From the IMG/VR virus record IMGVR_UViG_3300024229_000651: a DNA stretch of 64,000 nt. One strand, given 5' to 3'. A program made the translations under genes and the position numbers. Origin of the DNA: a virus (lineage: Duplodnaviria; Caudoviricetes). The notes below the pieces were generated by a model that searched no databases, was not told the DNA's origin, and saw nothing but the letters and a program-made list of their open reading frames with translations. Within the stretch, counting starts at the first letter, position 1. The number at the start of each line of letters is the position of its first letter. This document shows, one piece after another, positions 4,726 through 55,277 of the stretch.

Positions 4726-4748
4726 TATTTATCTCCTGCATATAAATA
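4726..4748. promoter_or_regulatory. Divergent pair of late-promoter motifs
   Basis: GATAAATA on minus (4726-4733) and TATAAATA on plus (4741-4748), the latter 6 nt before ATG 4755. Confidence 0.65.
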
Positions 4749-23592: not shown

Positions 23593-23600
23593 TATTTATG
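23593..23600 (-). promoter_or_regulatory. Late-promoter motif 5 nt before terminase ATG
   Basis: CATAAATA GCAAT ATG. Confidence 0.65.
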
Positions 23601-29477: not shown

Positions 29478-29495
29478 ACTATTATTTATCCTTTA

Positions 29496-36285: not shown

Positions 36286-36321
36286 AACACTATTTATCTT
36301 ATTCTGCTGTACTTGAAGGGA

Positions 36322-39631: not shown

Positions 39632-39844
39632 TTATTTATTCGGATCTCCCCACGGGGTGGACTCTTCGATGGCATCTTGAGCACACTGTATATAGTCTTT
39701 GTCTTCCTCTGTCAACACAGACCAAAACTTGCTGACAGTAAGTGTGTGTTCATAAACTTCTAGTGGGTTTTCTAGATGGTAATCGCTTTCCATCCAGGCT
39801 TGCAATTGATCCATTCTATCATTAATCTTTTCTTTAAGATTCAA
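39632..39844 (-). CDS. Small hypothetical protein
   Basis: 70-aa ORF between tRNAs with AAGGA SD. Confidence 0.65.
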   Translation of the reverse strand: MNLKEKINDRMDQLQAWMESDYHLENPLEVYEHTLTVSKFWSVLTEEDKDYIQCAQDAIEESTPWGDPNK

Positions 39845-39942: not shown

Positions 39943-40230
39943 CTATTTATTTCGCTTAACCCACAGATGCCCGTTCTTCTCGGCGTCATGGAATACTGTA
40001 GCTGTGACAAAGAATGCCCCGACAACTAACAGGTGTCCTCCCACACTGTAGATTCCGTAGTAAATCGTATAGCCTGCCCATGCAGTAAATACTGCTGACC
40101 ACATTACAGACAAATAAAACATCAGAATAAATTGTGTATACGGACTAGGAATATGACGTAATGGGTTGTACTTTAGATTAAAAAAGTAATTATAAAGATC
40201 GTAAATTGCAAATCCAAGTTTCTTAAACAT
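39943..40230 (-). CDS. Small membrane protein
   Basis: 95 aa, two hydrophobic helices, AGGAG SD. Confidence 0.7.
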   Translation of the reverse strand: MFKKLGFAIYDLYNYFFNLKYNPLRHIPSPYTQFILMFYLSVMWSAVFTAWAGYTIYYGIYSVGGHLLVVGAFFVTATVFHDAEKNGHLWVKRNK

Positions 40231-43281: not shown

Positions 43282-43905
43282 ATGAAAGAAATAATTGATT
43301 TCACTGCTGCTCGTATAGAGGCAGAGTTAAACAAATTTCAAAAAAACAAGCGTATACCAACTGTATTTATAGATGGTACTTACACCATTGCTGATGTAGA
43401 AAGCGTATTTGATAAATTATCAAAAAAACATCAGCGCATTGCAATAAAGTTCATAGACCATTTCAAAGAAAATATTGCAGAGAGTTCTGAGCAACTATCG
43501 GAGAACTTTTTTAAAGATTACCAATCGTTTATACAAGATCAGCGGACTAGAGATGATGGTTGGGCATTTCCAGCAGTTATGTCTAGGTTTAGAGACAATA
43601 TTAATCCGGTTAGGGCAGTAATATACGATGCTAGAGAAATAGTGAGATCGTATTCTAGTGAAAATCCGCGACACATTTGGATGCATGCTATACTTACAGA
43701 AAATGAATTTCATAACAGGCTGTTAGATGCGATTATAACTGACCGAAAGCGAGTAGATAAGATTTTAAATGCATACTTACCGTTGTATAATGGAGCAGAT
43801 TTGCCCGAGCCATTACAAATGATACATCTTCGAAGATTACGAACAGATTTATTAGAATATGCAAACACTATTATAGAATTAAAAAACTGGGAACCGGAAG
43901 AATAA
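43282..43905 (+). CDS. Hypothetical helical protein
   Basis: 207 aa; AATAAATA GTAGC ATG. Confidence 0.7.
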   Translation: MKEIIDFTAARIEAELNKFQKNKRIPTVFIDGTYTIADVESVFDKLSKKHQRIAIKFIDHFKENIAESSEQLSENFFKDYQSFIQDQRTRDDGWAFPAVMSRFRDNINPVRAVIYDAREIVRSYSSENPRHIWMHAILTENEFHNRLLDAIITDRKRVDKILNAYLPLYNGADLPEPLQMIHLRRLRTDLLEYANTIIELKNWEPEE

Positions 43906-43906
43906 T

Positions 43907-45979
43907 TTATTTTGTGGTTGCTATAAATATTCCGTCCCAGTCTGCAGGCAACTCTTGTGTTTTCATATACTCGCAACGCTCAATCCACATGTCGTAGTAA
44001 CCTGCCATTTTGCCGTTAAACTCCTTTTTAAGATCATTGCAGTATACTATAGCGGTATCAAACATTTGATCTTTGTATGCTTCATGCATTTTTTCATGGA
44101 CTTGTTGTGGCATTGCCCAGTCTGTATTAGTCATCATCCAATCCATTTTACACAATACAGTGTATATAGAAATGCCAACTGTTTTTCCTTTAACTGCTAA
44201 GTCATCTACCTTTAAATAAAAGAAGTCATCCTTAGTTTTTTCGTATGTGCTGCCGCCTACTAGTAATAAGCACCCGTATTCTTTGCACTTAGACTCAATT
44301 CGTGCGGCAGTTGATACAGCATCTCCAAGTACATCATAACTATGTCTGCTTGTAGAGCCCATCTCACCGAGATAACCAACGCCAGTGTTAATGCCAGCCC
44401 CCATACCAATTGGAGGTCTTCCCTCTGCTGTGATCTTATCATTAAATTTCTCCACTGCTGTTAACATGTCCAAACCGGTTTGCACTGCTGAGTGTTCATG
44501 CTTTGCATCATCGTTTGGTGCATTGTGTATATGCATACTTGCATCACCTATGTACTTGATAATCATACCGTCTGCATCAAGTACAGGTTGCGTGATAGCA
44601 TCCATATATCCATTCATTAGTTTTGTGAGTCCTTGTACATCATCTCCAAAACTTTCACCTAATGGTGTGAAGCCACGCAAGTCTGAAAAGCATATTGATA
44701 TCTCTCGCTTCATGCCTTCTTTGATCAACGCAGGATTTTCTTTTAACATACGCACCACTGTAGGCGAACAATATCCAGCAAATTGTTTTTCAATCTCTTG
44801 TCTTAATTTAAACTGTATCCAGAAGTTGTTAAAACTTGCCTGTGTAAAGATTAAGAATGCACTTATTGCAGGAAAAGTAGCATCAAATAAAACTAAGTTT
44901 GCTGTATAAGAATGTATAGTATAATAAGCAATAGACCCTATAATGCTTACTGTAGTAAACAATCCTGCCCATACGGGCAACTTATATATTGCTAGAGCAA
45001 CTAATATCATGCTCAACAACGCACACAGAAGCTCTGTAAGCAACGATAACTCGGACCTGGTAATATTACTACCGTCTATAAAGTTTTGTAGCATAGACGC
45101 TTGTATGTGCTGTGGTAATGTGTTGCCTACCGGAGTGGGCACCGGATTGGCAACACCTTCTGCACTCACACCCACTATGACAAACTTTCCACCTAAGTCA
45201 GGCAGTTCACTTGCATCTACATATTCGTATTCTTCAAATGTATTGTTGAACCGTATATATGCAGTCCCGTTTGGCTGTGTCACTATTGGGTCAAAAGGCG
45301 GCACAGCAAATTCCTGTATTCCTATCTCACTAGTTTTTAGTATGTAACTCGGCTTACCTGTATAAGTCCTTAACATCTCAATAGCAAAACTAGGGTATAT
45401 CTTTCCCTCTACTCCAATTGCTAATGGGTAGGTCCTTGTTTGGTTATCTGGCTGTGGCGCAGAAGCAATCACTCCAATACCAGCAGAAGTATTTTCTAGT
45501 ATCTCAATATTTTTTACAATATTCGGCCAAGTCAGCAGGTAGTTAGTAGCAGACACTGGTCCTATAGTTGCTGTACCGATATGAGGAGCTGAAGTTCTAA
45601 CGCCTTTAGCAGATGGTGCTTGGCTTAGAACTACGCCGTTGTCAGTCATCCAACTTGCTAAAACTTCATCTCCGCCGAATCTATCTGCTTCTGGGAACAT
45701 GAAATTTAAACCAATTATACCTGCATTATGATTTCGCAAGTCCGATATTAGTTGTGCAAAATTCTGTCTTGGCCAGGGCCATTGTCCCCACTGTTGTAGG
45801 CTTTTTTCGCCAATGTTTATTACTACAACTTCGTTGCTTTGTTTAACTTCATCTAATTGTTGATAGTAATCGAATGTCTGTGAACGCAGACTTTGAACTG
45901 GGACGGGATCAGCAACTCGTAGAGTTGTCAATAGTAATACAGATATTGCTACGGCCCACCCGCTTAGTAACCATTTCAT
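43907..45979 (-). CDS. CHASE2-domain class III adenylate cyclase
   Basis: N-terminal anchor, CHASE2 motifs (QWGQWPWPRQ, FPEADR, PTPVG), 3 TM helices, FSDLRGFT, KYIGDA, GINTG, YDVLGDAVSTAARIES. Confidence 0.92.
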   Translation of the reverse strand: MKWLLSGWAVAISVLLLTTLRVADPVPVQSLRSQTFDYYQQLDEVKQSNEVVVINIGEKSLQQWGQWPWPRQNFAQLISDLRNHNAGIIGLNFMFPEADRFGGDEVLASWMTDNGVVLSQAPSAKGVRTSAPHIGTATIGPVSATNYLLTWPNIVKNIEILENTSAGIGVIASAPQPDNQTRTYPLAIGVEGKIYPSFAIEMLRTYTGKPSYILKTSEIGIQEFAVPPFDPIVTQPNGTAYIRFNNTFEEYEYVDASELPDLGGKFVIVGVSAEGVANPVPTPVGNTLPQHIQASMLQNFIDGSNITRSELSLLTELLCALLSMILVALAIYKLPVWAGLFTTVSIIGSIAYYTIHSYTANLVLFDATFPAISAFLIFTQASFNNFWIQFKLRQEIEKQFAGYCSPTVVRMLKENPALIKEGMKREISICFSDLRGFTPLGESFGDDVQGLTKLMNGYMDAITQPVLDADGMIIKYIGDASMHIHNAPNDDAKHEHSAVQTGLDMLTAVEKFNDKITAEGRPPIGMGAGINTGVGYLGEMGSTSRHSYDVLGDAVSTAARIESKCKEYGCLLLVGGSTYEKTKDDFFYLKVDDLAVKGKTVGISIYTVLCKMDWMMTNTDWAMPQQVHEKMHEAYKDQMFDTAIVYCNDLKKEFNGKMAGYYDMWIERCEYMKTQELPADWDGIFIATTK

Positions 45980-45984
45980 AATAA

Positions 45985-45992
45985 TATTTATC
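45985..45992 (-). promoter_or_regulatory. Late-promoter motif 5 nt before cyclase ATG
   Basis: GATAAATA TTATT ATG. Confidence 0.65.
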
Positions 45993-46488
45993 GTATCTTA
46001 CGGCAGGTATTACTGGCTTCGAACCACACATCAAAGTTATTAGCAACTACGGCTGTCATCATGTAATTTATTCCTGCTAAGTCTGCGTCAGTTACAATGT
46101 CGGTCTTATTAGTATGCCATAGTGTAGGAGCAAGTAACACTAATTTCAGTCCTAGTATGTCGGTTGCAGTTGGCGATTTGCCAAGTATAGGATTGACTTC
46201 TTCTACACAGCTATATTGTAATGCTCTGTCACTTGTGTACACATCTAATACTTGTAACGCATAGAATAATGACCATGTAAGTTTAGATGCTGGTTCTTTT
46301 AATGATGGTAAGTTTAGTTCAACCTGTGGAGGATATTCATATGTAGGTTGATTAACTTGATCTAATACTGCTTGACTGTAACAACAAGTATCGCCTGCAT
46401 TAATGAAGTGTATTTGACTCTTAGTTAAACTAATAGCATAACTAGACGAGGAAAGTAAACTTATAACAACAACAATACACCATTTCAT
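45988..46488 (-). CDS. Secreted/membrane hypothetical protein
   Basis: Signal-like N-terminus MKWCIVVVISLLSSSSYA; start reset to ATG 5 nt after GATAAATA (46494-46501). Confidence 0.65.
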   Translation of the reverse strand: MKWCIVVVISLLSSSSYAISLTKSQIHFINAGDTCCYSQAVLDQVNQPTYEYPPQVELNLPSLKEPASKLTWSLFYALQVLDVYTSDRALQYSCVEEVNPILGKSPTATDILGLKLVLLAPTLWHTNKTDIVTDADLAGINYMMTAVVANNFDVWFEASNTCRKIR

Positions 46489-46507
46489 AATTTTATTTAT
46501 CAAAAGA

Positions 46508-46531
46508 AAAAGCACACCTAGGTGTGCTTTT
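46508..46531 (-). terminator. Intrinsic terminator after the monooxygenase pair
   Basis: Perfect palindrome AAAAGCACAC-CTAG-GTGTGCTTTT then TCTTTT on minus. Confidence 0.75.
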
Positions 46532-46658
46532 ATTAGTTAGTAAGCCGAACTTGCCGGCAGTGTCCATACATAATTTTTATCTATGGCTAAAGTACATTGT
46601 AACTTCAAATCCAAGTCTTATATTTTCATAAGTTGGTTTAGTCCACATAGTAGTCTCC

Positions 46659-47885
46659 TTATAAGTTTTTCCAAGTAAATGCGCCAAAGAACATTTCATC
46701 CTCCGACATTTGTCCCCACGGAACATCTCTGCTAGGATCCGGGTTCATTTTATTCTCAGCCGAGTTGTCAAATGCGCCTTCTACAAACAATCGTGTACCC
46801 ACGGGTAAGAATTTAGGCTCTCTCCATGTGTATGACAGTTGCCAAGCATATTCGTAACGTGGCACATCAATAAGTTCTTCTACAGTGCCGTCTGGGTAGT
46901 ACGCTGTTGCTTTCATACTCTTGCCACGAAAGTGCATGTGTGGTAAAAATGTGTGCAGCATTACATCTTGCTTTAGTACTACTTCTGCTGTCTGTACAAA
47001 GTTAGGATCGTAAGCAGGTATAGTTGTCCAGTTGTTTGGGAAGATACAAGCACAGTCTCCTGCCATTCTTTCTTGTGGTACTACACCTTCATCGTGGAAG
47101 TACAATCCAATCCTTGCTTCGTCAGTTCTTGCTACGCCGTCTGGAGTGTAGTGTAACTGCAAGTTTACAGTACTACCTGCTCGTAACAAGCCGCCAGTAT
47201 TCTCGTCATAAAAGTCTGGATCACCGCCAGGAACATAAGCACTAACAGAAGCATAGTTCATTTCTTCTTGCCCGCCTCCTTGTGTGCCAAGAATGTTAGC
47301 ATTACGCTCGCCTGGTACACTCACAGAGTTTAGCATGTGATGCATTACTGTAGGCTCTGAAGGCAAAAACTCTGAACCACGAAGCCACTTGTCTTCTGTT
47401 AATCCCAAGTCAACACCTACATAGCGATAAGGAATCGCACTAGGACCAGCAGGTATTTCTTGTGCTGGTACATATACAATCATATCAGGTTCGCCGTGTA
47501 CCCACTCAGATGTTGAGTATACCGTTTCTGTTAGTGGGTCTCTGTCACCTTCAACAGGTGCACCTGCATTGATCCATTCAACAATAGTCTCCATTTCTAG
47601 ATGACTAAGTGTACGGTGGTTGATAATATCCTTTGCATACTTGCGATCAATCTGTCCAGGCGGCATTTCCAATGTTGTAACTGCTTCTTTAATGGCAGGT
47701 GCAAACGCTTGAAGCATCCTATAATCAGTCATTGCCCAAGGAGCAATGCCCCCTTCTCTGTGACAGCTTTGACATTGCTCTACAAAGATTGGTGCTACGT
47801 TTTCTGCATAGTCTATAGCAACATCATCGTGTGCATACGCAATAGATGATACCAGACTACCTACTAGCAACATTAATTTTTTCAT
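46659..47885 (-). CDS. Cytochrome c-fused copper type II (PHM/DBH-like) monooxygenase, paralog 2
   Basis: Signal peptide; CQSCH; MHHM, LHY, PHMH, DEMF copper ligands. Confidence 0.8.
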
Positions 47886-49140
47886 CTCGTTCCTCTTTTA
47901 GTTTAGTATATCCTTCATCGTCCAGATGTGTAATAGCAAGCCAAGCATGAGTCATTTCGTCTCCTGTTCTTGAACCGCCCATTACCCACATATCAGGATC
48001 TGGATTGTTTGGGTTATTTTCTGTGTTGTCATACCATTGCTTTAGAACAATAACTGCTCCAGCTGGTAGGAGTGGTGCAACATCTGGAGCATATAAATGA
48101 CTGTGATGCCATGTTGCGCTCCAATTACTCACTTGGCTAATCTGTTCTGTGCGTCCTGTCTCAGGATAGAATATTTCCAAACTTGCTGCGTTCATACGCA
48201 AGTGTCCATGTGGTTGAAAACTATCTAGTCTAACTGGATGATCAAAACTGTGGAAGCCTTGTGTCATGTAATAACCATGTGGTGGGATAGTAATATCGTC
48301 CTGGTCTCCTAGGCGATACAAACTTAAATCTTGTTTGTATTTCAGTTGTTCGCTTTCCTCTTCGGTGTATAACCAAAGACCAATCTCTACCACGTTGTCT
48401 TTGATAACTGATCCTGGTGCCATTGCGCCAAGTCCACCTGGGAACATGTGAATGTCCCACGACACTTCTGCGTTTGCTGGGATCGTGCGACATACTCCCT
48501 CTGGCACGATCTCTCCCCACTTTCCCATAGCGTACTCAGTGAGCATGCCTTCACGCCCTTCTGCGGTGATGATGGAAGAGTTAGCATGATGTACTACTGA
48601 CTTAGCATTACCACGTGGCTTTACTTGTACTGCTTTAATGCACCTCTCCTCAGTTAGTCCTGTTGGGACTAAATGCTTATGCCATAAGTCATTACCGTTT
48701 GCTGGAATGTCAATAGCAACTGAAGGTATGATTGCATCTGGTGCACCGAAGTCACCCTCAAAATTCCATGCTTCCAAGTCTTTCATTGGTGGTGCTTGTA
48801 CAACAGTATCAGGATCGCCGTACTGTGAGCCTGCATTAACCCATGCAACAACAGTGTCGATGTCGTCTTGTGATAAACGCCAATCGCCTTGTAGGTCTTG
48901 AATGCCAATACCGTGATCGTATGCATAAGGAGGCATTTCTCTGTTTGCTACACGCATCTGTATTAGTGGAGCCCAAGGTCTTACTTGCTCGTATGTTTCA
49001 AAGCTCATTGGTCCAATGCCGCCTGCTCTGTGACATACTACACAATTGTTGTTGATAATTTTTGCGACTTCTGCTGTGTACGTTTGCGCAGTCGCAAAAA
49101 CGGGTAGCATCATTAAAAATGCCAACAGTATTCTGTTCAT
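47857..49140 (-). CDS. Cytochrome c-fused copper type II (PHM/DBH-like) monooxygenase, paralog 1
   Basis: Start at MNRILLAF (GAGGA SD); CVVCH; VHHA, IHM, PHGH, DEMT ligands. Confidence 0.8.
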   Translation of the reverse strand: MNRILLAFLMMLPVFATAQTYTAEVAKIINNNCVVCHRAGGIGPMSFETYEQVRPWAPLIQMRVANREMPPYAYDHGIGIQDLQGDWRLSQDDIDTVVAWVNAGSQYGDPDTVVQAPPMKDLEAWNFEGDFGAPDAIIPSVAIDIPANGNDLWHKHLVPTGLTEERCIKAVQVKPRGNAKSVVHHANSSIITAEGREGMLTEYAMGKWGEIVPEGVCRTIPANAEVSWDIHMFPGGLGAMAPGSVIKDNVVEIGLWLYTEEESEQLKYKQDLSLYRLGDQDDITIPPHGYYMTQGFHSFDHPVRLDSFQPHGHLRMNAASLEIFYPETGRTEQISQVSNWSATWHHSHLYAPDVAPLLPAGAVIVLKQWYDNTENNPNNPDPDMWVMGGSRTGDEMTHAWLAITHLDDEGYTKLKEERDEKINVASR

Positions 49141-49165
49141 AAAAAGTTCCTCTGTGGTTACAAAA

Positions 49166-49173
49166 TATTTATA
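49166..49173 (-). promoter_or_regulatory. T4-type late promoter for the monooxygenase pair
   Basis: Exact TATAAATA 25 nt before ATG; a TATAAT also lies just upstream. Confidence 0.55.
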
Positions 49174-49227
49174 TGTATTATACAGAGAAGTTAAGAAAAA
49201 TGTAACCAATGTTACAATTTGTTGCAT

Positions 49228-49512
49228 CTAGGCAGTATAGTAAGGACCTACACGTTTACATTGAAAGCTAATCGAATATCCAGGCTTCGCATATTCCATA
49301 TTTTCCAACCAATAATCAAATGCATGTTGCCGAAAAGAGTCGTTATATTTAGGATCATAATAAAACTGTGTGCAATGGTGATTTTTAACAAATGTCCTAA
49401 CAGTTTTTGACTCTAATACGTCTCCAGAAGACGTACTTAGTACCAGTATTAACGCTGATTCTATATAACCCATATCAAGAAAACTTCTTTTGGAGCCACT
49501 TAAATGTGGCAT
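49228..49512 (-). CDS. Small hypothetical protein
   Basis: 94 aa, two Cys, in curli cluster; start uncertain. Confidence 0.5.
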   Translation of the reverse strand: MPHLSGSKRSFLDMGYIESALILVLSTSSGDVLESKTVRTFVKNHHCTQFYYDPKYNDSFRQHAFDYWLENMEYAKPGYSISFQCKRVGPYYTA

Positions 49513-49765
49513 ATATACTGAGTCCGTAAAATGCTAACACACTCATTGGTAATGCTATGTATGCTAATTCCCACGGTGTTAAGAACAGCACTTGCCAAGT
49601 GAAGTTTGCTACTGCTTCTGCATCACCTAGTCTTTCTGCTATTTCTAATTCACCCTCAAATTCAACACCTGCATCTTCCATCATAGTGATGAGTTCTACG
49701 TATTGATCTTGTGTAAGACATACTTCGTATTCTTCTGCACAGTTGTTGTCGCCGCCGTAGTCCAT
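49475..49765 (-). CDS. Small membrane-anchored hypothetical protein
   Basis: C-terminal hydrophobic helix; TAATG coupling to curlin-like gene. Confidence 0.6.
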   Translation of the reverse strand: MDYGGDNNCAEEYEVCLTQDQYVELITMMEDAGVEFEGELEIAERLGDAEAVANFTWQVLFLTPWELAYIALPMSVLAFYGLSIYATFKWLQKKFS

Positions 49766-50841
49766 TAGTTGCTACCGTTTACTGTTATTGAACATCCTGA
49801 CGAGGTATAACACACACCTGTGATACTGTAAGTGCCTGCTGATGACGTCATGTTTTGTATTAGGTTAAGATTATAAGCACCCGAACCGTATGTTAAATCT
49901 ATGGTTGCTGTTGCCGCATTTCCACCACGTTGGTTAACATCAACACTATGCCCATCGCCATCTAACACAATGTCTGCCCATTTAACACCGCCGTTGCCTC
50001 GTTGATATAAATCAACAGTATTATTGTTACCGCCAATTTCTATAAAGCCATCGTGTCCTGCTTTTCCCATTTGTGTATGTGCTACACTATTACTATCGCC
50101 AGTAATGATATTTACTAAATGATGTCCTGCTCCACCACTTGATCTGTTTGTATCAGTTTGGTAACTTGCTAATGTATTGTTATCCCCAGTCACAGTCCAG
50201 TATGCTTCGTGATCTCCTACTTCATCTGCATCAGTAGTGCCGTCTGAATGTTTGCCTTGCCATATTTTGAGATTGTTGCTGTCTGAATTTGAGTTTATAT
50301 AGGCATATATATAATTGTCATCCTGTCCGTTACCTTGATAAGCATCTATATTATTGTAAGTGCCGCTAAATGATTCAAGATAAGCATAATGACCGTCACC
50401 TGCTTGATAAAGTTGAATAGCATTAGACACGTTACTATTGGTATTGCCTGCTTCTAACCAAGCATAGTTATTATCACCTATTATGTCTGCTTGTAATGAA
50501 ACTGAATTACCGTGAGCATCCATAAACAAATCATTGGAGTCACCGGTTATGTGACCACTTACATTTTGATTACTACCACTTGACCAAAGACCTATATCGT
50601 TAAGGTCGCCGGAAGTGTCGATATCAAGATTCAAATTGGAACTATTTAGAGTAGCCTTTCCAGCTAGTTGTAAATTTTTTACTGTGTTGCCGTAACCTTG
50701 TTGTAGAATATTTAAATTAAGACTGTCGCCAGCTTGATCAATGAGAATAATATTGCTGTTAGCACTTTGCGCATTTACTTGTTGTGTTAACAACATCATA
50801 GACAATATAATATACTGCATGTTGATTAATATTTTATTCAT
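49765..50841 (-). CDS. Curlin-like beta-solenoid repeat protein (long, 358 aa)
   Basis: Signal peptide; repeated Q-x-G and (I/V)xGD(S/N)N units; C-terminal Cys pair. Confidence 0.75.
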   Translation of the reverse strand: MNKILINMQYIILSMMLLTQQVNAQSANSNIILIDQAGDSLNLNILQQGYGNTVKNLQLAGKATLNSSNLNLDIDTSGDLNDIGLWSSGSNQNVSGHITGDSNDLFMDAHGNSVSLQADIIGDNNYAWLEAGNTNSNVSNAIQLYQAGDGHYAYLESFSGTYNNIDAYQGNGQDDNYIYAYINSNSDSNNLKIWQGKHSDGTTDADEVGDHEAYWTVTGDNNTLASYQTDTNRSSGGAGHHLVNIITGDSNSVAHTQMGKAGHDGFIEIGGNNNTVDLYQRGNGGVKWADIVLDGDGHSVDVNQRGGNAATATIDLTYGSGAYNLNLIQNMTSSAGTYSITGVCYTSSGCSITVNGSN

Positions 50842-50842
50842 G

Positions 50843-52006
50843 TTATCCTTGTGTCTGTCTTATAAAAATATTTATGTCTGAACAATTATTTACACAAATA
50901 ATACTTTTCTTGGGCTCTACTTCTGTTTCTATTTTTGTGTTGGACCCAGCTGGTACTCTAATACTTATCTTTCCTTGACCGTCTACTAAACGAATAAACA
51001 ATATACCGTTATCTTCTATAATTGTATTATACATTGTAACTGGATCGAATCCTGGATTTAGCGTACCAGTAATTTTGTCTTGAACTCTTACTGCTAACTT
51101 ATCATCTGATACTGGATCTAAATCTAAGCCGGGCTCCAACACATCAAGTAAGTTCTGCAAGTAGTCAATACCTAAATAGTCAATGTCTAATTCTGTAAAG
51201 GACAGATCTTCCATATTTTCATTCAGCAAATCATTTTCTAAAAAATCCTGATCCAATCCATCAAACGCTAATAAATCCTGGTCCATAGACAATTGTTCTC
51301 GTTGATCATCGACAGCTTGTTCTACTTCTTGTGGTGGTTGTACAATAAACATATTATCGATCATAGATAAATTAAGATTACGTATTACTACAGGCGTAGT
51401 CGGAATGGTTTCAAATGTGCTAACCATAACAGCTTGATACGCCTCGTCAAGTACTTGTGTGCCGCCTTGATTCGATACACTAATGCTCCCGCTAGGAGCG
51501 CATCCTTCTTCTAAGTCAATTCCATCCGTACAATTTTCATCTGGTAATAATATTACCAAACTGCGGCCTAATTCATCTACACTCATAGTAAAATCAGTGC
51601 CTCTAATCCCTATACTTGCTGTCGGTGTCTGTATTGCTATGTTTTCCCGGGGCACTAGACCTAACTTTCCAGTTGCAAATCTTGCTGTCCCTTGCGCAAA
51701 ATTAAGAGCCATTTTACTCTTATTAGGATCAGGGTCGTACACATACTCATTTATTTCTACAACAGTATGCTCGGTCATAGACACTTCAGTGTTATCAACG
51801 AACTGTATTTTGAGCCTACCGTTTTCCGTTTCAACTGTGTCCATAGAAACTATAGGTGCGTTCAAATCGGCAGTAAGTTCCTCACCACCTTGTCTCAGTA
51901 TTTCGCCCGGAGTTCCACTTTGTTCAAACACATCGCCTATTTGTGCTATTGCAATGCTTTGAACTAATAATGTACTAATCAGTAATAGTAATCTGGACTG
52001 TCGCAT
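50843..52006 (-). CDS. FecR-domain protein with acidic C-terminal extension
   Basis: Signal/TM; DTVETENGRLKIQFVDNTEVSM, TPTASIGIRGTDF, GSISV FecR pattern. Confidence 0.8.
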   Translation of the reverse strand: MRQSRLLLLISTLLVQSIAIAQIGDVFEQSGTPGEILRQGGEELTADLNAPIVSMDTVETENGRLKIQFVDNTEVSMTEHTVVEINEYVYDPDPNKSKMALNFAQGTARFATGKLGLVPRENIAIQTPTASIGIRGTDFTMSVDELGRSLVILLPDENCTDGIDLEEGCAPSGSISVSNQGGTQVLDEAYQAVMVSTFETIPTTPVVIRNLNLSMIDNMFIVQPPQEVEQAVDDQREQLSMDQDLLAFDGLDQDFLENDLLNENMEDLSFTELDIDYLGIDYLQNLLDVLEPGLDLDPVSDDKLAVRVQDKITGTLNPGFDPVTMYNTIIEDNGILFIRLVDGQGKISIRVPAGSNTKIETEVEPKKSIICVNNCSDINIFIRQTQG

Positions 52007-52703
52007 TATTACTGTCAATGTCTAGATCTATGTGTCCGTAACAACTTGATACGCCAGTTGGGCATGTACCAGAACTCATAAGTATATCAAAATCACCTGC
52101 GTCTCCGTCATGGATTACTTTTAAATACTGATTTGCACCATCAGTTAAACTTGTTAAAAAATTGTTTGTGTCGCCTGTCAGGTCAATGTCCCAAGTTGCA
52201 TCGTCGACTTCTATGTCGACATCAAATACGTTTGAATCGCCTATTACTGTCCAGTCCATATCTAAACGTTCTGCGCTAACTACACTAGCTAAGTCAAAGT
52301 CCATCGTGTTGCTGTCACCTGTAATATCAACCAAGATATTAGCGTCATCTGCACTAGCTGCATCTCCGATCAAATTGTTCCATATATTACTGCTACCAGT
52401 AAAAGTCCAATTCAACGTAGAATTATCACTAGTAATATCACCAAAGAACTTGTTGCTGTTACCTACCTGGTCTAAATCCATAGTAATACCAGTACCAGTT
52501 ATAACCAAGTCTGTGCTATCATTTTCGTCACCGGAGATTTTATTTCCGTAACCGTCTTGTATGATTGTCAACGTCAATGTATTACCCACTTGCTCGATTA
52601 GTATTTCATTGTCTGTTGTTCCTGCTGCAGCAATTGCAAAATTAGCTACACCTAACAAACAAACAGCAAGCACTGTTGCTATTTTGTTAATTTGTTTTTT
52701 CAT
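51975..52703 (-). CDS. Curlin-like beta-solenoid repeat protein (short, 242 aa)
   Basis: Signal peptide; IEQVGN..IIQDGYGN, LDQVGNSN, ITGDSN, VIGDSN, LTGDTN. Confidence 0.7.
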   Translation of the reverse strand: MKKQINKIATVLAVCLLGVANFAIAAAGTTDNEILIEQVGNTLTLTIIQDGYGNKISGDENDSTDLVITGTGITMDLDQVGNSNKFFGDITSDNSTLNWTFTGSSNIWNNLIGDAASADDANILVDITGDSNTMDFDLASVVSAERLDMDWTVIGDSNVFDVDIEVDDATWDIDLTGDTNNFLTSLTDGANQYLKVIHDGDAGDFDILMSSGTCPTGVSSCYGHIDLDIDSNNATVQITITD

Positions 52704-52716
52704 AATAATGTCCTTG

Positions 52717-53622
52717 TTATTTTTTCTCTGCGATCTCGTCTATAGTAGTATCCACTGGTTGCTCGTTATCATATTCGATTTTCCAGAATCCTCGTTCATC
52801 GCCTTGTTCTATAAGGGCTAACACCGCGGCTTCTATAGCACTACGTACTGCCCAAGTCGTACTTTCGTTTTGTGTCATGCCTGTTTCTAGCTCGATCAGT
52901 TTTGTATCCATATCTACGAATCGGAATACATCTCCTGCTAGTCCAACAGACAAAATAGTTTTGTATGTCTGTACATTCAATATAACTTCGCCAGTTAGTG
53001 TACTAACTGCTCGCAGAGACACTGTTACAGAATCTCGTCTATACTGATTAGTTGTTCCTATGCCTAAGTATCTGGCGCCGTTTCCGCCTGTTTCTATGTT
53101 TGTGTCGTAGCCAACTACGCCGCCTTCGAATAACATGCCGGCGAATAACATTGGTTGTAATGCTTGCTGTTCTTCTCCTGTGGCTTTTTCGTAATCCTGT
53201 CGTGTGCTCCGTATAATTTGACGCTCTCTTATCAAATTATCTAAACTCATGCCACGTTCAACTACACGGAACCAGGTGCCGTTTCCGGTGTCGCCTGCTC
53301 CAGCTGCCTTAAGAGCATCAATTAACAACTCTTTGGCACCTTGTGTAACTGCTGTACTAAAACTCTGTCCGCTGTCAGACGCTTTCCGTTGACCAGTTAA
53401 ATCTGCGAAAGTATAAATTGCGACCACCGGTTGAGTTTCGGCCGGAGGCAATTCCCTTAATTTTTTATATGTAGGTAATTCTACTTGCTGAGGGGGTTCT
53501 ATACATTCTTGTTTAGGATTTTTTTCCCAACACCATTCCGCAGACAACTTTCCAGGGAAAGACGTGCTGGCACATCCTGACAAAAATACAAGTATAAAAC
53601 TTGCTACTATTAAACGTGTCAT
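52717..53622 (-). CDS. csgG: Curli secretion channel CsgG homolog (lipoprotein)
   Basis: Lipobox LSGC; VAIYTFADLTGQRK, FSTAVTQG, WFRVVER, NLIRERQIIR, EGGVVGYD, GIG....YRRD, IETG...NE. Confidence 0.92.
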   Translation of the reverse strand: MTRLIVASFILVFLSGCASTSFPGKLSAEWCWEKNPKQECIEPPQQVELPTYKKLRELPPAETQPVVAIYTFADLTGQRKASDSGQSFSTAVTQGAKELLIDALKAAGAGDTGNGTWFRVVERGMSLDNLIRERQIIRSTRQDYEKATGEEQQALQPMLFAGMLFEGGVVGYDTNIETGGNGARYLGIGTTNQYRRDSVTVSLRAVSTLTGEVILNVQTYKTILSVGLAGDVFRFVDMDTKLIELETGMTQNESTTWAVRSAIEAAVLALIEQGDERGFWKIEYDNEQPVDTTIDEIAEKK

Positions 53623-54173
53623 CCGCCTAAATTCCCTACACCAACTGGTATGTCAATAGTAGTTGTCGACCCGTCCTCGGCAACAATAGTCATACGTATG
53701 ATAGCGATGCCATCTTCTCCTAGCATCCTTTCATAAGTTACTGTATTTCCTTCAATAGTAAACACGCCATAGTCGGCGCCTTCCTCGTTGCCGAACATCT
53801 GATCTACTAACTGTCGTGATATTTGACTGTAAATTCTGCTTTCTAAGTTTCTTAAAAACTTATTTAATGTCGAGTTTTCTTCTTCACGTTCTGCGTCTCT
53901 TAATGCAGATTCAATATCGTCTTTGATTTGCTCTCGCCTAGAACGTTCCTGATTTTCAATCGTCAGGTAGTGTGCGCCGGTGCCTATCCCATTAAAACTC
54001 GGTGATTTGAATCTGTGTGTTAATTGATCTGCAAGAGCCAACGGACTCATCACAAGCAACCCGATTATTAGTCCTACAATAAATGCCTTAAACAAATCCT
54101 TACCAGTCCATATGTGCGGGCCGGTAGCTGCTTTAAGCATTTCCCAATCTCTGTTAGTCATTTGTATCCCCAA
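53619..54173 (-). CDS. csgF: CsgF homolog (likely start at ATG 54161)
   Basis: Hydrophobic segment then DQLTHRFKSPSFNG (cf. CsgF F.F.NP.FGG); directly upstream of csgG. Confidence 0.72.
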   Translation of the reverse strand: MGIQMTNRDWEMLKAATGPHIWTGKDLFKAFIVGLIIGLLVMSPLALADQLTHRFKSPSFNGIGTGAHYLTIENQERSRREQIKDDIESALRDAEREEENSTLNKFLRNLESRIYSQISRQLVDQMFGNEEGADYGVFTIEGNTVTYERMLGEDGIAIIRMTIVAEDGSTTTIDIPVGVGNLGG

Positions 54174-54269
54174 TTATAGTAGAAGTAAACCTATTCCAAA
54201 TCCTATATTGAGCCCAATTGAACAGACTAAAATAAAATCTTTAGAAAAAGAATACGGTGTTAACTCCAC
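54174..54269 (-). CDS. Putative 31-aa membrane peptide
   Basis: GTG start, MELTPYSFSKDFILVCSIGLNIGFGIGLLLL; fills the gap exactly. Confidence 0.4.
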   Translation of the reverse strand: MELTPYSFSKDFILVCSIGLNIGFGIGLLLL

Positions 54270-54276
54270 TATCTCA

Positions 54277-54582
54277 TTATTGTGTGTCATTAGTTGTTTT
54301 CTCCGTTCTTCTAGATTTCTCTAGAAATTCCTCTTTGAGCTTATCCCTAGCCCTATACTCTAAAACAACATTTACTTTTTGTTGTAAGCGTATCATATCT
54401 TGATCTAGCATACGAGTTTTGTCTATGACCTTAATTAATGCCATGTGCATTTCTTCTAATGCTGGGTCGATATGTTCTCCAATAAAATTCCAGATAAAAT
54501 ATATAAAATATCCTAACCCTACCATCATTACTATGGGAAATCCATAGTCACTTATTAATTGTGCAATGCCTGCTTGTTCCAT
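54277..54582 (-). CDS. Single-TM coiled-coil protein (YvrJ/holin-like), paralog 2
   Basis: ISDYGFPIVMMVGLGYFIYFIW then amphipathic helix. Confidence 0.6.
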   Translation of the reverse strand: MEQAGIAQLISDYGFPIVMMVGLGYFIYFIWNFIGEHIDPALEEMHMALIKVIDKTRMLDQDMIRLQQKVNVVLEYRARDKLKEEFLEKSRRTEKTTNDTQ

Positions 54583-54777
54583 TTAAATCTCAATGTGTTC
54601 GATCTTAGTAAGATCAATTTTTCTAAGTGTTACTTCTTTTGTGACTGGATCCACAAAAGACATAAATCCTTCTCCAGGTTTAATACCTAATTTATCTGCT
54701 TCCAACTCCTCAAAAGTAATTGAACCTGCTTCATCCAGCATGATCGAGTACTCTAAAAATCTACATGCTTTCGCCAT
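54583..54777 (-). CDS. Small protein, possibly AbrB-like swapped hairpin
   Basis: GSITF...KLGIKPGE pattern. Confidence 0.45.
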   Translation of the reverse strand: MAKACRFLEYSIMLDEAGSITFEELEADKLGIKPGEGFMSFVDPVTKEVTLRKIDLTKIEHIEI

Positions 54778-55073
54778 TAGTCTCTCCTCACATCTATTTT
54801 GCCATCTTCCACAAAATTTTCTGCTCGCGATATACGTTCGATATCAGGCTTTAACTCTAGTGCACTACTAACTAATAAATCAATTTTCATCATTTCATTA
54901 CTCATAGTCGTGGCGCGGTTTTCTAAGCCTTTGCAAAATATAGTGAGCGTTTTAACTTGTTCGACAATACCTTCCATAATTTGTCGAATCACAAGGAATA
55001 TGAAGAAGCCCATTACTAATGAGCCGGCTATGGGAGCGCCAACTTGGGCGATTAAATCAAATATTTCTGTCAC
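54777..55073 (-). CDS. Single-TM coiled-coil protein (YvrJ/holin-like), paralog 1
   Basis: IAQVGAPIAGSLVMGFFIFLVI; GTG start after AGGTGAG. Confidence 0.6.
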   Translation of the reverse strand: MTEIFDLIAQVGAPIAGSLVMGFFIFLVIRQIMEGIVEQVKTLTIFCKGLENRATTMSNEMMKIDLLVSSALELKPDIERISRAENFVEDGKIDVRRD

Positions 55074-55158
55074 AATAGTACATCTCACCTGTTTGTGTTT
55101 TTTGTTTATAGGTGTAAGTGTATGTGTATTATGTTTTCAGTGTGTTATCCTACGTTTA

Positions 55159-55166
55159 TATTTATC
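55159..55166 (-). promoter_or_regulatory. Late-promoter motif heading the curli-like operon
   Basis: GATAAATA just downstream of the fibre terminator. Confidence 0.6.
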
Positions 55167-55208
55167 TTAAAACAACGAAACACTACTTTTTCCGTCGGTG
55201 CTGAAACC

Positions 55209-55235
55209 AAAAAAAGAGGGCCGAAGCCCTCTTTT
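55209..55235 (-). terminator. Intrinsic terminator after fibre gene
   Basis: AAAAGAGGGC-TTCG-GCCCTCTTTTTTT (C-UUCG-G loop). Confidence 0.9.
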
Positions 55236-55277
55236 GGTGTGCAAGTAACTGCACGGTTCCTAAGGTAGTAGGAATTC

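Follow-up and report, generated by a model that had tools for sequence, protein, structure and literature searches.

The locus described here raises the question of whether a co-oriented block of phage genes for secreted and membrane proteins encodes one trans-envelope system or several things placed side by side. The block lies in IMG/VR virus record IMGVR_UViG_3300024229_000651 (Duplodnaviria; Caudoviricetes), in a stretch of 64,000 nucleotides that was analysed as a whole and is referred to as the window. The window covers positions 205543-269542 of a viral contig of 339.8 kb with a rated completeness of about 91%, and the 340-kb phage encodes T4-like morphogenesis genes. Between positions 43907 and 55235 of the window, every real gene is on the minus strand. 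On the one hand, these genes encode the secretion proteins CsgF and CsgG, two secreted curlin-like proteins, a FecR-domain protein and a CHASE2 nucleotide cyclase. On the other hand, they encode two secreted haem-copper monooxygenases (cytA and cytB) and a precursor peptide of pyrroloquinoline quinone (PQQ), encoded by pqqA. An earlier reading of the sequence, called the original prediction below, had taken the whole block for a single secretion and signalling system. We consider it probable that the block is instead a composite of two independent things, namely a pelagiphage-type viral type VIII secretion module and a self-contained cassette.

Composition of the block

In the direction of transcription, the first half of the block consists of TM103, orf64, TM101, CsgF, CsgG, curlin-like 1, FecR and curlin-like 2, and the second half consists of orf96, orf94, cytA, cytB, pqqA, orf166 and the CHASE2 cyclase. 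All of the genes named in the original prediction were found on the minus strand and, since the genes, families and flanks were as described, the observation from which it started is confirmed. Its inventory was incomplete in that orf64, orf96, orf94, pqqA at 46577-46648 and the terminator at 46531-46508 had been missed. Both of the flanks that it had given, a fibre terminator and a morphogenesis operon 1 nt away, were seen. The upstream side is bounded by the terminator listed below; on the opposite side, a convergent plus-strand operon with a gp15-like sheath stabiliser ends at 43905, which leaves a gap of 1 nt to the stop codon of the cyclase. A megablast search of the block against deposited phages gave no match.

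55212-55235, minus strand: intrinsic terminator (10-bp stem and T run) after the upstream 1103-aa fibre-like gene, bounding the block

The haem-copper monooxygenase and pqqA cassette

The following features make up the cassette in the second half of the block.

49166-49172, minus strand: ATAAATA motif heading the inserted cassette; cassette contigs end at 49149-49150 in two RNA runs
47857-49140, minus strand: cytA, secreted protein of 427 aa with a cytochrome c domain and a predicted PHM/DBH-like copper monooxygenase (CxxCH and HH..H..HxH..M in alignment A5)
46659-47885, minus strand: cytB, secreted protein of 408 aa with a cytochrome c domain and a predicted PHM/DBH-like copper monooxygenase (AlphaFold2 (AF2) model with a predicted local distance difference test score (pLDDT) of 87.2)
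46577-46648, minus strand: pqqA, 23-aa PQQ precursor peptide (PF08042, E 2.9e-10) with an AAGGAG ribosome-binding site
46508-46531, minus strand: intrinsic terminator closing cytA-cytB-pqqA (10-bp stem and T run); contigs end at 46525-46554 in three RNA runs

Neither cytA nor cytB was found in any of the 30 other secretion modules examined. Relatives of cytA/cytB are carried by 113 other IMG/VR viral contigs at 76-95% identity, and a copy with 94% identity neighbours lysozyme and DUF1353 genes in phage contigs of 115-125 kb. When 80 loci were examined for the neighbourhood of cytB, curli genes were nearby in a single one, which belongs to a close relative of the window phage, and the other 79 were without them. 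Because the cassette has its own ATAAATA motif and its own terminator, is absent from the 30 modules and is widespread without curli genes, we conclude that cytA-cytB-pqqA is a mobile auxiliary metabolic cassette that recurs in many other marine phage contigs and is separate from the secretion system and not part of it. The cassette would have been inserted into the variable slot of the module between curlin-like 2 and the cyclase.

This conclusion bears directly on the original prediction, which treats the entire 11 kb as a single trans-envelope secretion and signalling system, whose copper monooxygenases would modify or serve the fibres or the signal. The co-orientation of the genes, the motif that they share and the signal peptides or transmembrane (TM) helices of most of the products are in line with a single system, as is a close relative (locus L147; loci are denoted by L numbers) in which cytB lies beside orf166 and the cyclase. 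However, a single system is largely refuted because of the distribution of cytA and cytB given above, and the cassette, with its separate motif and terminator, travels with pqqA. Accordingly, we regard the block as one system as highly improbable.

In terms of protein family, the assignment of secreted cytochrome c/copper monooxygenases in the original prediction holds. A search of the cytB sequence against solved structures found nothing, so that a fold search was needed; in Foldseek, the model of cytB matched PHM (E 2.5e-12) and human DBH (E 1.7e-11), within matches ranging from 2.5e-12 to 1e-10. In an alignment of 40 sequences, conservation is complete for H182, H183 and H245 and almost complete for H316, H318 and M398, and the CxxCH motif and M74 are invariant or nearly so. 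Considering its position, M74 is likely to be an axial haem ligand. Several relatives of cytB match PF03712 (Cu2_monoox_C) above the cut-off, and cytA, which shows weak cytochrome c Pfam matches, is 26% identical to its paralogue cytB. Based on these alignments and the predicted structure, cytA and cytB appear to be real copper monooxygenases of the PHM/DBH fold with the full ligand set. They would share with PHM and DBH the two-domain beta-sandwich fold and the ligand pattern HH..H..HxH..M with similar spacing. They differ from PHM and DBH in that they are predicted periplasmic proteins of bacteria and phages in which a cytochrome c domain at the N-terminus replaces the ascorbate dependence. 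There are 11,141 representative relatives of cytB, most of which are about 600 aa long with an extra N-terminal AhpC/TSA domain; this redoxin domain is found in most of the cellular relatives, whereas the phage copies do not have it.

The pqqA peptide reaches 40.3 bits against a cut-off of 21.1, its EVTMY segment fits the conserved E-x-x-x-Y, and a related database match from an Acinetobacter contig lies immediately upstream of pqqB-E. In 15 of the 80 viral loci, pqqA directly follows cytB, and it occurs nowhere else in those loci. Genes for pqqC, pqqD, pqqE, a PQQ-dependent alcohol dehydrogenase or methanol dehydrogenase were not found in the phage genome. The literature contains one report of a viral pqqA, from phages of methylotrophs in Lake Baikal (PMC7678222). 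Those phages and the window have in common a phage PQQ precursor without pqqB-E, whereas the pqqA of the window differs from the Lake Baikal case in that it is third in a conserved cassette, behind two haem-copper monooxygenase genes. The two monooxygenase genes, with pqqA often behind them, make up a phage cassette that is separate and widespread, and the phages that carry pqqA therefore point to PQQ-using hosts, such as methylotrophs.

Genes for pqqA that carry no annotation are also present in cultured phages of OM43/LD28 methylotrophs, namely Melnitz (L129:2498-2569), Venkman (L130:1501-1572) and P19250A (L131:1501-1572), and further pqqA genes were found by tblastn in MEP301, MEP401 and MEP402. 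In Melnitz, the gene is overlaid by an annotated 'hypothetical protein' on the opposite strand. There is no mention of pqqA in the OM43-phage papers PMC9004378, PMC8024684, PMC10580990 and bioRxiv 10.1101/2020.04.27.064238.

The secretion module and its relatives

The rest of the block is built around eight core genes, which are given in the order of transcription.

54777-55088, minus strand: TM103, small membrane protein with one TM helix and a coiled coil; the module's first conserved gene
54277-54582, minus strand: TM101, second small single-pass membrane protein with a coiled coil, conserved, with a GFPI motif
53619-54173, minus strand: CsgF homologue (PF10614, E 7.9e-13)
52717-53622, minus strand: CsgG outer-membrane lipoprotein channel (PF03783, E 1.4e-45; lipobox LSGC)
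51975-52703, minus strand: curlin-like 1, secreted repeat protein of 242 aa (signal peptide, GDxN repeats)
50843-52018, minus strand: FecR-domain protein, secreted, with an acidic linker and a C-terminal domain (PF04773, E 2.2e-12)
49765-50841, minus strand: curlin-like 2, secreted repeat protein of 358 aa (Curlin_rpt, E 3.1e-5)
43907-45979, minus strand: CHASE2 and class III nucleotide cyclase of 690 aa (PF05226, E 1.5e-38; PF00211, E 2.6e-16)

All block proteins were compared by tblastn with 28 IMG/VR loci found through CsgG and with the Pelagibacter phage HTVC008M and the Methylophilales phage Melnitz, to whose proteins those of the block are 33-51% identical. Wherever the contig reaches, the order is fixed as two membrane proteins, CsgF, CsgG, curlin-like 1, FecR, curlin-like 2 and cyclase. 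Thus, the core genes occur together in the related phage loci examined, as the original prediction had supposed, with locus L009 lacking a visible cyclase. Its statement on curli genes in SAR11 myophages was also correct. Zaragoza-Solas et al. (2020) described a CsgF/CsgG cluster in pelagimyophages (PMC7029224), and Buchholz et al. (2022) discussed the cluster of Melnitz as a possible lysis-timing pore (PMC9004378). Wittmers et al. (2022) reported the full set 'HK, CsgF, CsgG, CsgA/B, FecR, CsgA/B, AC' (HK, histidine kinase; AC, adenylate cyclase) in podo- and myophages, found the viral curli module at all 65 GOV2.0 stations and in metatranscriptomes, and proposed aggregation ('sibling capture'), superinfection defence or import as its role (PMC9599517). 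Since the gene order and the functional ideas were published between 2020 and 2022, the core is not new. The idea of the original prediction is a rediscovery, and this applies to the FecR protein and the cyclase as well as to aggregation, superinfection and lysis timing (PMC9599517, PMC7029224, PMC9004378). These same three papers do not name the CHASE2 domain of the cyclase. We conclude that the core of the window block is an ordinary member of the published viral module, in a new very large phage.

The window shows the same gene order as the other pelagiphage-type modules (HTVC008M, pelagimyophage genomes from metagenomes, HTVC023P-type podophages and Melnitz), and both are marine and lack CsgE. 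On the other hand, the window module is carried by a 340-kb phage contig and is located between a fibre gene and a neck/sheath operon, whereas the modules of pelagiphages are located between the replication and structural modules. The slot before the cyclase also differs, as in the window it holds orf96, orf94, the cytA-cytB-pqqA cassette and orf166. In other phages, the variable slot from FecR to the cyclase can be occupied by extra curlin-like or PA14 proteins, a flavin adenine dinucleotide/nicotinamide adenine dinucleotide (FAD/NAD) oxidoreductase or members of the orf166 family.

TM103 and TM101 are paralogues of about 100 aa with one TM helix each. An orthologue of TM103 is present, and TM101 is kept, in every related locus that reaches the respective position; the true start of TM103 is probably an internal GTG a few codons in. 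In the literature, the two leading genes of the module carry the label 'histidine kinase' (PMC9599517). HisKA and HATPase gave no match in any of the 39 members of the TM103/TM101 family, even at E values up to 1, and the sole recurring family match was a weak match to YvrJ (4 of the 39). The label is not supported for these single-pass proteins of about 100 aa with no kinase domain.

Promoter motif and unit boundaries

The original prediction had placed one late-promoter motif at four sites in the block and had described it as common to virion genes. The four sites stand, but the element that they share is ATAAATA and not the full TATAAATA, and a fifth copy had been overlooked. Besides the copy that heads the cassette, the motif is found at the following positions.

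55159-55165, minus strand: ATAAATA heading the long unit from TM103 through orf94; contig right ends at 55019-55182 in four RNA libraries
50869-50875, minus strand: extra ATAAATA within the 3'-terminal part of the FecR gene, 34 nt upstream of curlin-like 2, the fifth copy
46494-46500, minus strand: ATAAATA 5 nt upstream of the orf166 start codon (ATG); in four RNA runs, contigs of the unit that follows stop at 46474-46497
45985-45991, minus strand: ATAAATA 5 nt before the ATG of the cyclase (motif match)

The total count of ATAAATA is not enriched (32 copies vs 26 expected). Its placement is non-random, with 20 of the 32 copies in sense orientation and at most 80 nt upstream of gene starts. 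The motif precedes the genes for the terminase large subunit, two tail tube proteins, the sheath, the head-tail adaptor and several virion proteins, and the claim of a motif common to the block and to virion genes is borne out in this respect. An ATAAATA-type element is the late promoter in T4-like phages and, by analogy with T4, ATAAATA may serve as a late promoter here as well. Nine copies have the arrangement ATAAATA-N5-ATG; transcripts that start a few nucleotides past the motif would therefore have little or no leader and could not accommodate a ribosome-binding site. These copies are located at 23593-23599, 29483-29489, 36291-36297, 45985-45991 and 46494-46500 on the minus strand and at 4742, 25677, 40399 and 43270 on the plus strand.

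Six seawater metatranscriptome runs contain 86-97% of the sampled words of the block. In four RNA runs, contig breaks recur at 46474-46554, 49011-49248 and 55019-55271, which are the predicted promoter and terminator sites, and contigs of the fibre gene end at 55271 in the RNA libraries. The contig depth is 110-380 for the fibre and 9-38 for the block, a difference of about 10-fold. The breaks and the uneven depth fit three units, from 55150 to 49200, from 49150 to 46530 and from 46480 to about 44420. Two points speak against a firm assignment of the block to late transcription. RNA-library contigs, in which DNA carry-over is possible, cannot prove transcription, strand, timing or transcript ends. 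Moreover, ATAAATA also lies about 10 nt upstream of two tRNA genes (39633-39639 and 39944-39950, minus strand), so that expression in the late phase only is an extrapolation from T4.

Inside the cyclase gene, the contigs of all four RNA libraries break within the 50 nt at 44380-44430, which may reflect variation between strains at this spot or the end of an overlap between convergent transcripts. One RNA run shows a divergent continuation of 255 nt at 44686, inside the same gene.

CsgF, CsgG and the curlin-like proteins

CsgG of the window aligns with the solved E. coli CsgG over residues 36-291 (E 4.9e-46). The Gly16-Cys17 of its lipobox is invariant in 10 phage homologues and, in the CsgG tree, the window sequence lies inside a phage clade with a support of 100/97. 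The E. coli loop KPYPASNFSTAV, whose residues we take to be those of the CsgG constriction, corresponds to RKASDSGQSFSTAV in the window; Phe alone is kept, and the position of Asn is Ser in the window. The N-terminal RFKSPSFNG of CsgF, which directly follows the signal peptide and is conserved, aligns with FQFRNPNFGG of the E. coli protein. No CsgE (PF10627) over the cut-off was found in the 340-kb genome, in which a lone 14-bit match is distant and contains stop codons.

Orthologues of curlin-like 1 are present in all related loci that extend past csgG. The Curlin_rpt score of curlin-like 2 is 24.3 bits (cut-off 20.7). The AF2 model of this protein (pLDDT 74.9) is all-beta and its strands are regular, and a C-terminal Cys pair, C-x5-C, is invariant. 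In terms of parts, the window resembles the curli systems of E. coli and Salmonella (CsgBAC-CsgDEFG) in the CsgG lipoprotein channel, the N-terminal plug motif of CsgF and the secreted Q/N/G-rich repeat subunits. It differs from them in that CsgE, CsgC and CsgD are missing and in that the curlin-like subunits are much longer (242 and 358 aa) and acidic, with a Cys pair at the end. A built-in FecR-domain protein and a CHASE2 cyclase are found in the window and not in the curli systems of E. coli and Salmonella. Hosts that have no curli genes would gain a new surface function through a viral curli-type module.

The FecR-domain protein and the CHASE2 cyclase

The FecR domain spans residues 60-153 and directly follows a cleavable signal peptide. 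The protein has no N-terminal cytoplasmic anti-sigma domain and no TM anchor, and neither a partner sigma factor nor an STN-domain receptor is encoded adjacent to its gene. A role as an anti-sigma factor of the FecIRA type was considered and is ruled out by the signal peptide and the absent anti-sigma domain. These features also bear on one option from the literature (PMC9599517), in which the pore would import a nutrient or cofactor and FecR would be a regulator linked to iron or siderophores. The FecR Pfam domain is compatible with import, and the absence of CsgE could leave the pore open. However, the reading of FecR as an iron regulator is weak because the protein has a signal peptide and no anti-sigma domain, the bacterial FecR-like genes described below lie beside CHASE2 sensors and not beside iron genes, and the curlin-like substrates favour export. 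We therefore consider import very unlikely.

The cyclase is laid out as a TM helix, a periplasmic CHASE2 domain (PF05226, residues 15-325), three TM helices, a class III cyclase domain (PF00211, residues 424-600) and a C-terminal extension of about 90 aa. Among the catalytic residues, both metal-binding Asp, the Lys, the Asp of YDVLGD and the Arg are present (alignment A3). The transition-state Asn is replaced by Ser (GDAVSTAARIE, residues ~545-565) in the whole sub-family including Melnitz, and is kept (DYSV.GDAVNLAARLE) in the HTVC008M group and in the bacterial cyclase of locus L044. Therefore, two types of class III cyclase occur at one position of the module. The C-terminal extension is shared by the window, Melnitz, the nearest relatives and L044, whereas the HTVC008M group is without it.

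Among the matches listed from 401 alphaproteobacterial genomes, at least 29 FecR-like genes lie within 5 kb of a CHASE2 gene on the same contig, against a chance expectation of fewer than 2 by our own estimate. A biofilm-regulating operon of Burkholderia encodes a response regulator, a periplasmic LysM/FecR protein and a CHASE2 histidine kinase (PMC5192318). Based on these neighbours and on the Burkholderia operon, FecR and CHASE2 form a recurrent bacterial sensor pair, and there is evidence that the phage FecR protein and cyclase derive from this common pairing. The Burkholderia operon resembles the window in that a secreted FecR-domain protein is encoded beside a membrane protein with a periplasmic CHASE2 domain, and in Burkholderia the pairing is linked to surface or biofilm behaviour (PMC5192318). 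The output of the Burkholderia operon is a histidine kinase with a response regulator and its FecR protein carries LysM, whereas in the window a class III cyclase provides the output and the pair is located inside a secretion module. A complex prediction for FecR (residues 26-391) and CHASE2 (residues 24-325), made with the window proteins only and run without controls, gave a score of 0.00 and is no evidence either way.

The linked set in a bacterium

Species-representative genomes were scanned with a CsgG profile, which gave many alphaproteobacterial csgF-csgG loci without FecR or cyclase. The only cellular instance of the linked set that was found is on a 397-kb contig of a Henriciella metagenome-assembled genome (MAG), where CsgF, CsgG, a curlin-like protein of 504 aa, FecR and a CHASE2 cyclase are encoded consecutively (L044:6466-12489). 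FecR directly precedes the cyclase there, with overlapping reading frames. The set is flanked by TonB receptors, an FAA hydrolase and a 2-oxoglutarate (2OG) oxygenase, and its guanine-cytosine (GC) content is close to that of the flanks. Among 201 genomes from the family of the Henriciella MAG, a single one has an orthologue of the L044 FecR, and 400 further alphaproteobacterial genomes have none.

In the tree, L044 CsgG clusters with the phage clade (100/97) on a long branch, and not with those of other Hyphomonadaceae. An approximately unbiased (AU) test fails to reject phage monophyly (p 0.396), so that either direction of transfer is possible. A host-derived island was considered as the source of the phage module. 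The occurrence of the FecR orthologue in a single family genome and the position of L044 CsgG with the phage clade bear on this idea, and the AU test does not settle the direction.

L059 and other contigs binned as MAGs with the full module were rejected as cellular cases. They are mis-binned phage contigs, because genes for heme oxygenase, bilin reductase or the two small membrane proteins are present on them. The contigs that appear to be mis-binned are L038-L043, L048, L054, L059, L062, L076 and L080, and they sit in MAGs of Saprospirales, Flavobacteriales, Synechococcus, Rhodobacteraceae, Polynucleobacter and Pirellulales.

Proposed function of the module

[quoted passage not shown] In the periplasm, the FecR-domain protein would be either the partner of CHASE2 or an adaptor standing in for the missing CsgE, and the cyclase would turn the periplasmic state into a cyclic nucleotide signal. 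In the first case, FecR and the CHASE2 cyclase could act as an outside-in sensor of fibre export or of the envelope (superinfection, contact), and the cyclic nucleotide could tune the end of the infection, for example the timing of lysis. We consider such a sensor quite unlikely; if it is true, it would represent a phage-encoded analogue of lysis inhibition, in which the bacterial FecR and CHASE2 sensor pair is fused to a type VIII secretion system.

Several observations weigh against fibre export coupled to signalling. The match of curlin-like 1 to the CsgA NCBIfam model (E 5.9e-4) is below the cut-off, and a Foldseek search of the curlin-like 2 model against PDB gave no match at E <= 0.001, with weak beta-helix matches only. 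Because Ser replaces the transition-state Asn, the activity or the product of the cyclase is uncertain. At least one module (L009) has FecR and no cyclase in the approximately 5.6 kb of sequence available after curlin-like 2, and podophage modules without a cyclase have been reported (PMC9599517); a relay from FecR to the cyclase is therefore not obligatory. No clumping was seen in Melnitz-infected cultures (PMC9004378). Fibre export and cyclic nucleotide monophosphate (cNMP) signalling are functions that we infer.

The lack of clumping also agrees with the proposal for Melnitz (PMC9004378) that CsgG and CsgF are a gated, pinholin- or secretin-like pore for the timing of lysis, which the cyclase and the small membrane proteins would regulate. 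In the window, the late-type motif, the two leading single-pass proteins of holin/antiholin-like size and the failure to find a CsgE gate would suit such a pore. However, every module that reaches there encodes two curlin-repeat proteins with signal peptides, which a bare pore does not need. In addition, the CsgF motif that caps the CsgG barrel is retained, and no lysis genes are adjacent in the window. Considering both sides, a lysis pore seems rather improbable to us.

The modules without a cyclase bear as well on whether FecR is a periplasmic adaptor or chaperone of type VIII secretion that replaces CsgE and is not the partner of the cyclase, the latter being a loosely attached accessory. 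FecR is encoded between the two curlin genes in all modules, it is present where no cyclase is seen (L009 and the podophage modules), no CsgE was found, and the gene content from FecR to the cyclase is variable. On the other hand, FecR-like genes neighbour CHASE2 genes in Alphaproteobacteria far above chance, and the FecR gene of bacterial L044 directly precedes and overlaps that of the cyclase. We consider an adaptor role of this kind unlikely.

Returning to the composite of a secretion module and a cassette, the published views of the viral curli module are not overturned by it. To these views, we add a virion-type motif, unit boundaries in agreement with those of the metatranscriptome contigs, a bacterial instance of the linked set, evidence for a bacterial FecR and CHASE2 pairing behind the phage pair, and the corrected 'histidine kinase' label. 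These increments are useful but modest, and they narrow the range of worthwhile experiments.

Accessory genes

The remaining genes of the block are as follows.

54583-54777, minus strand: orf64, small lineage-restricted open reading frame (ORF), present only in the nearest relatives L006, L008 and L029
49228-49765, minus strand: orf96 (with a C-terminal TM helix) and orf94, lineage-restricted genes in the variable slot
45988-46488, minus strand: orf166, secreted or membrane protein of 166 aa, DUF5658-like, an accessory gene often found beside the cyclase

Pfam and NCBIfam scans gave no family match for orf64. There were likewise no family matches for orf96 and orf94, and the NCBIfam scan of the small ORFs gave nothing usable. 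The latter two occur together only in L005, L006 and L008; a further match to orf96 is present in L042, and relatives of orf96 are also found near the cytochrome cassette in other phages. The DUF5658 score is 19 bits for orf166 and 25.7 bits for its L006 orthologue, and the orf166 family is present in L005-L008, L020 and L147. In L006, the slot just before the cyclase holds another redox gene (L006:11152-11868), which encodes a ferredoxin-reductase-like FAD/NAD oxidoreductase.

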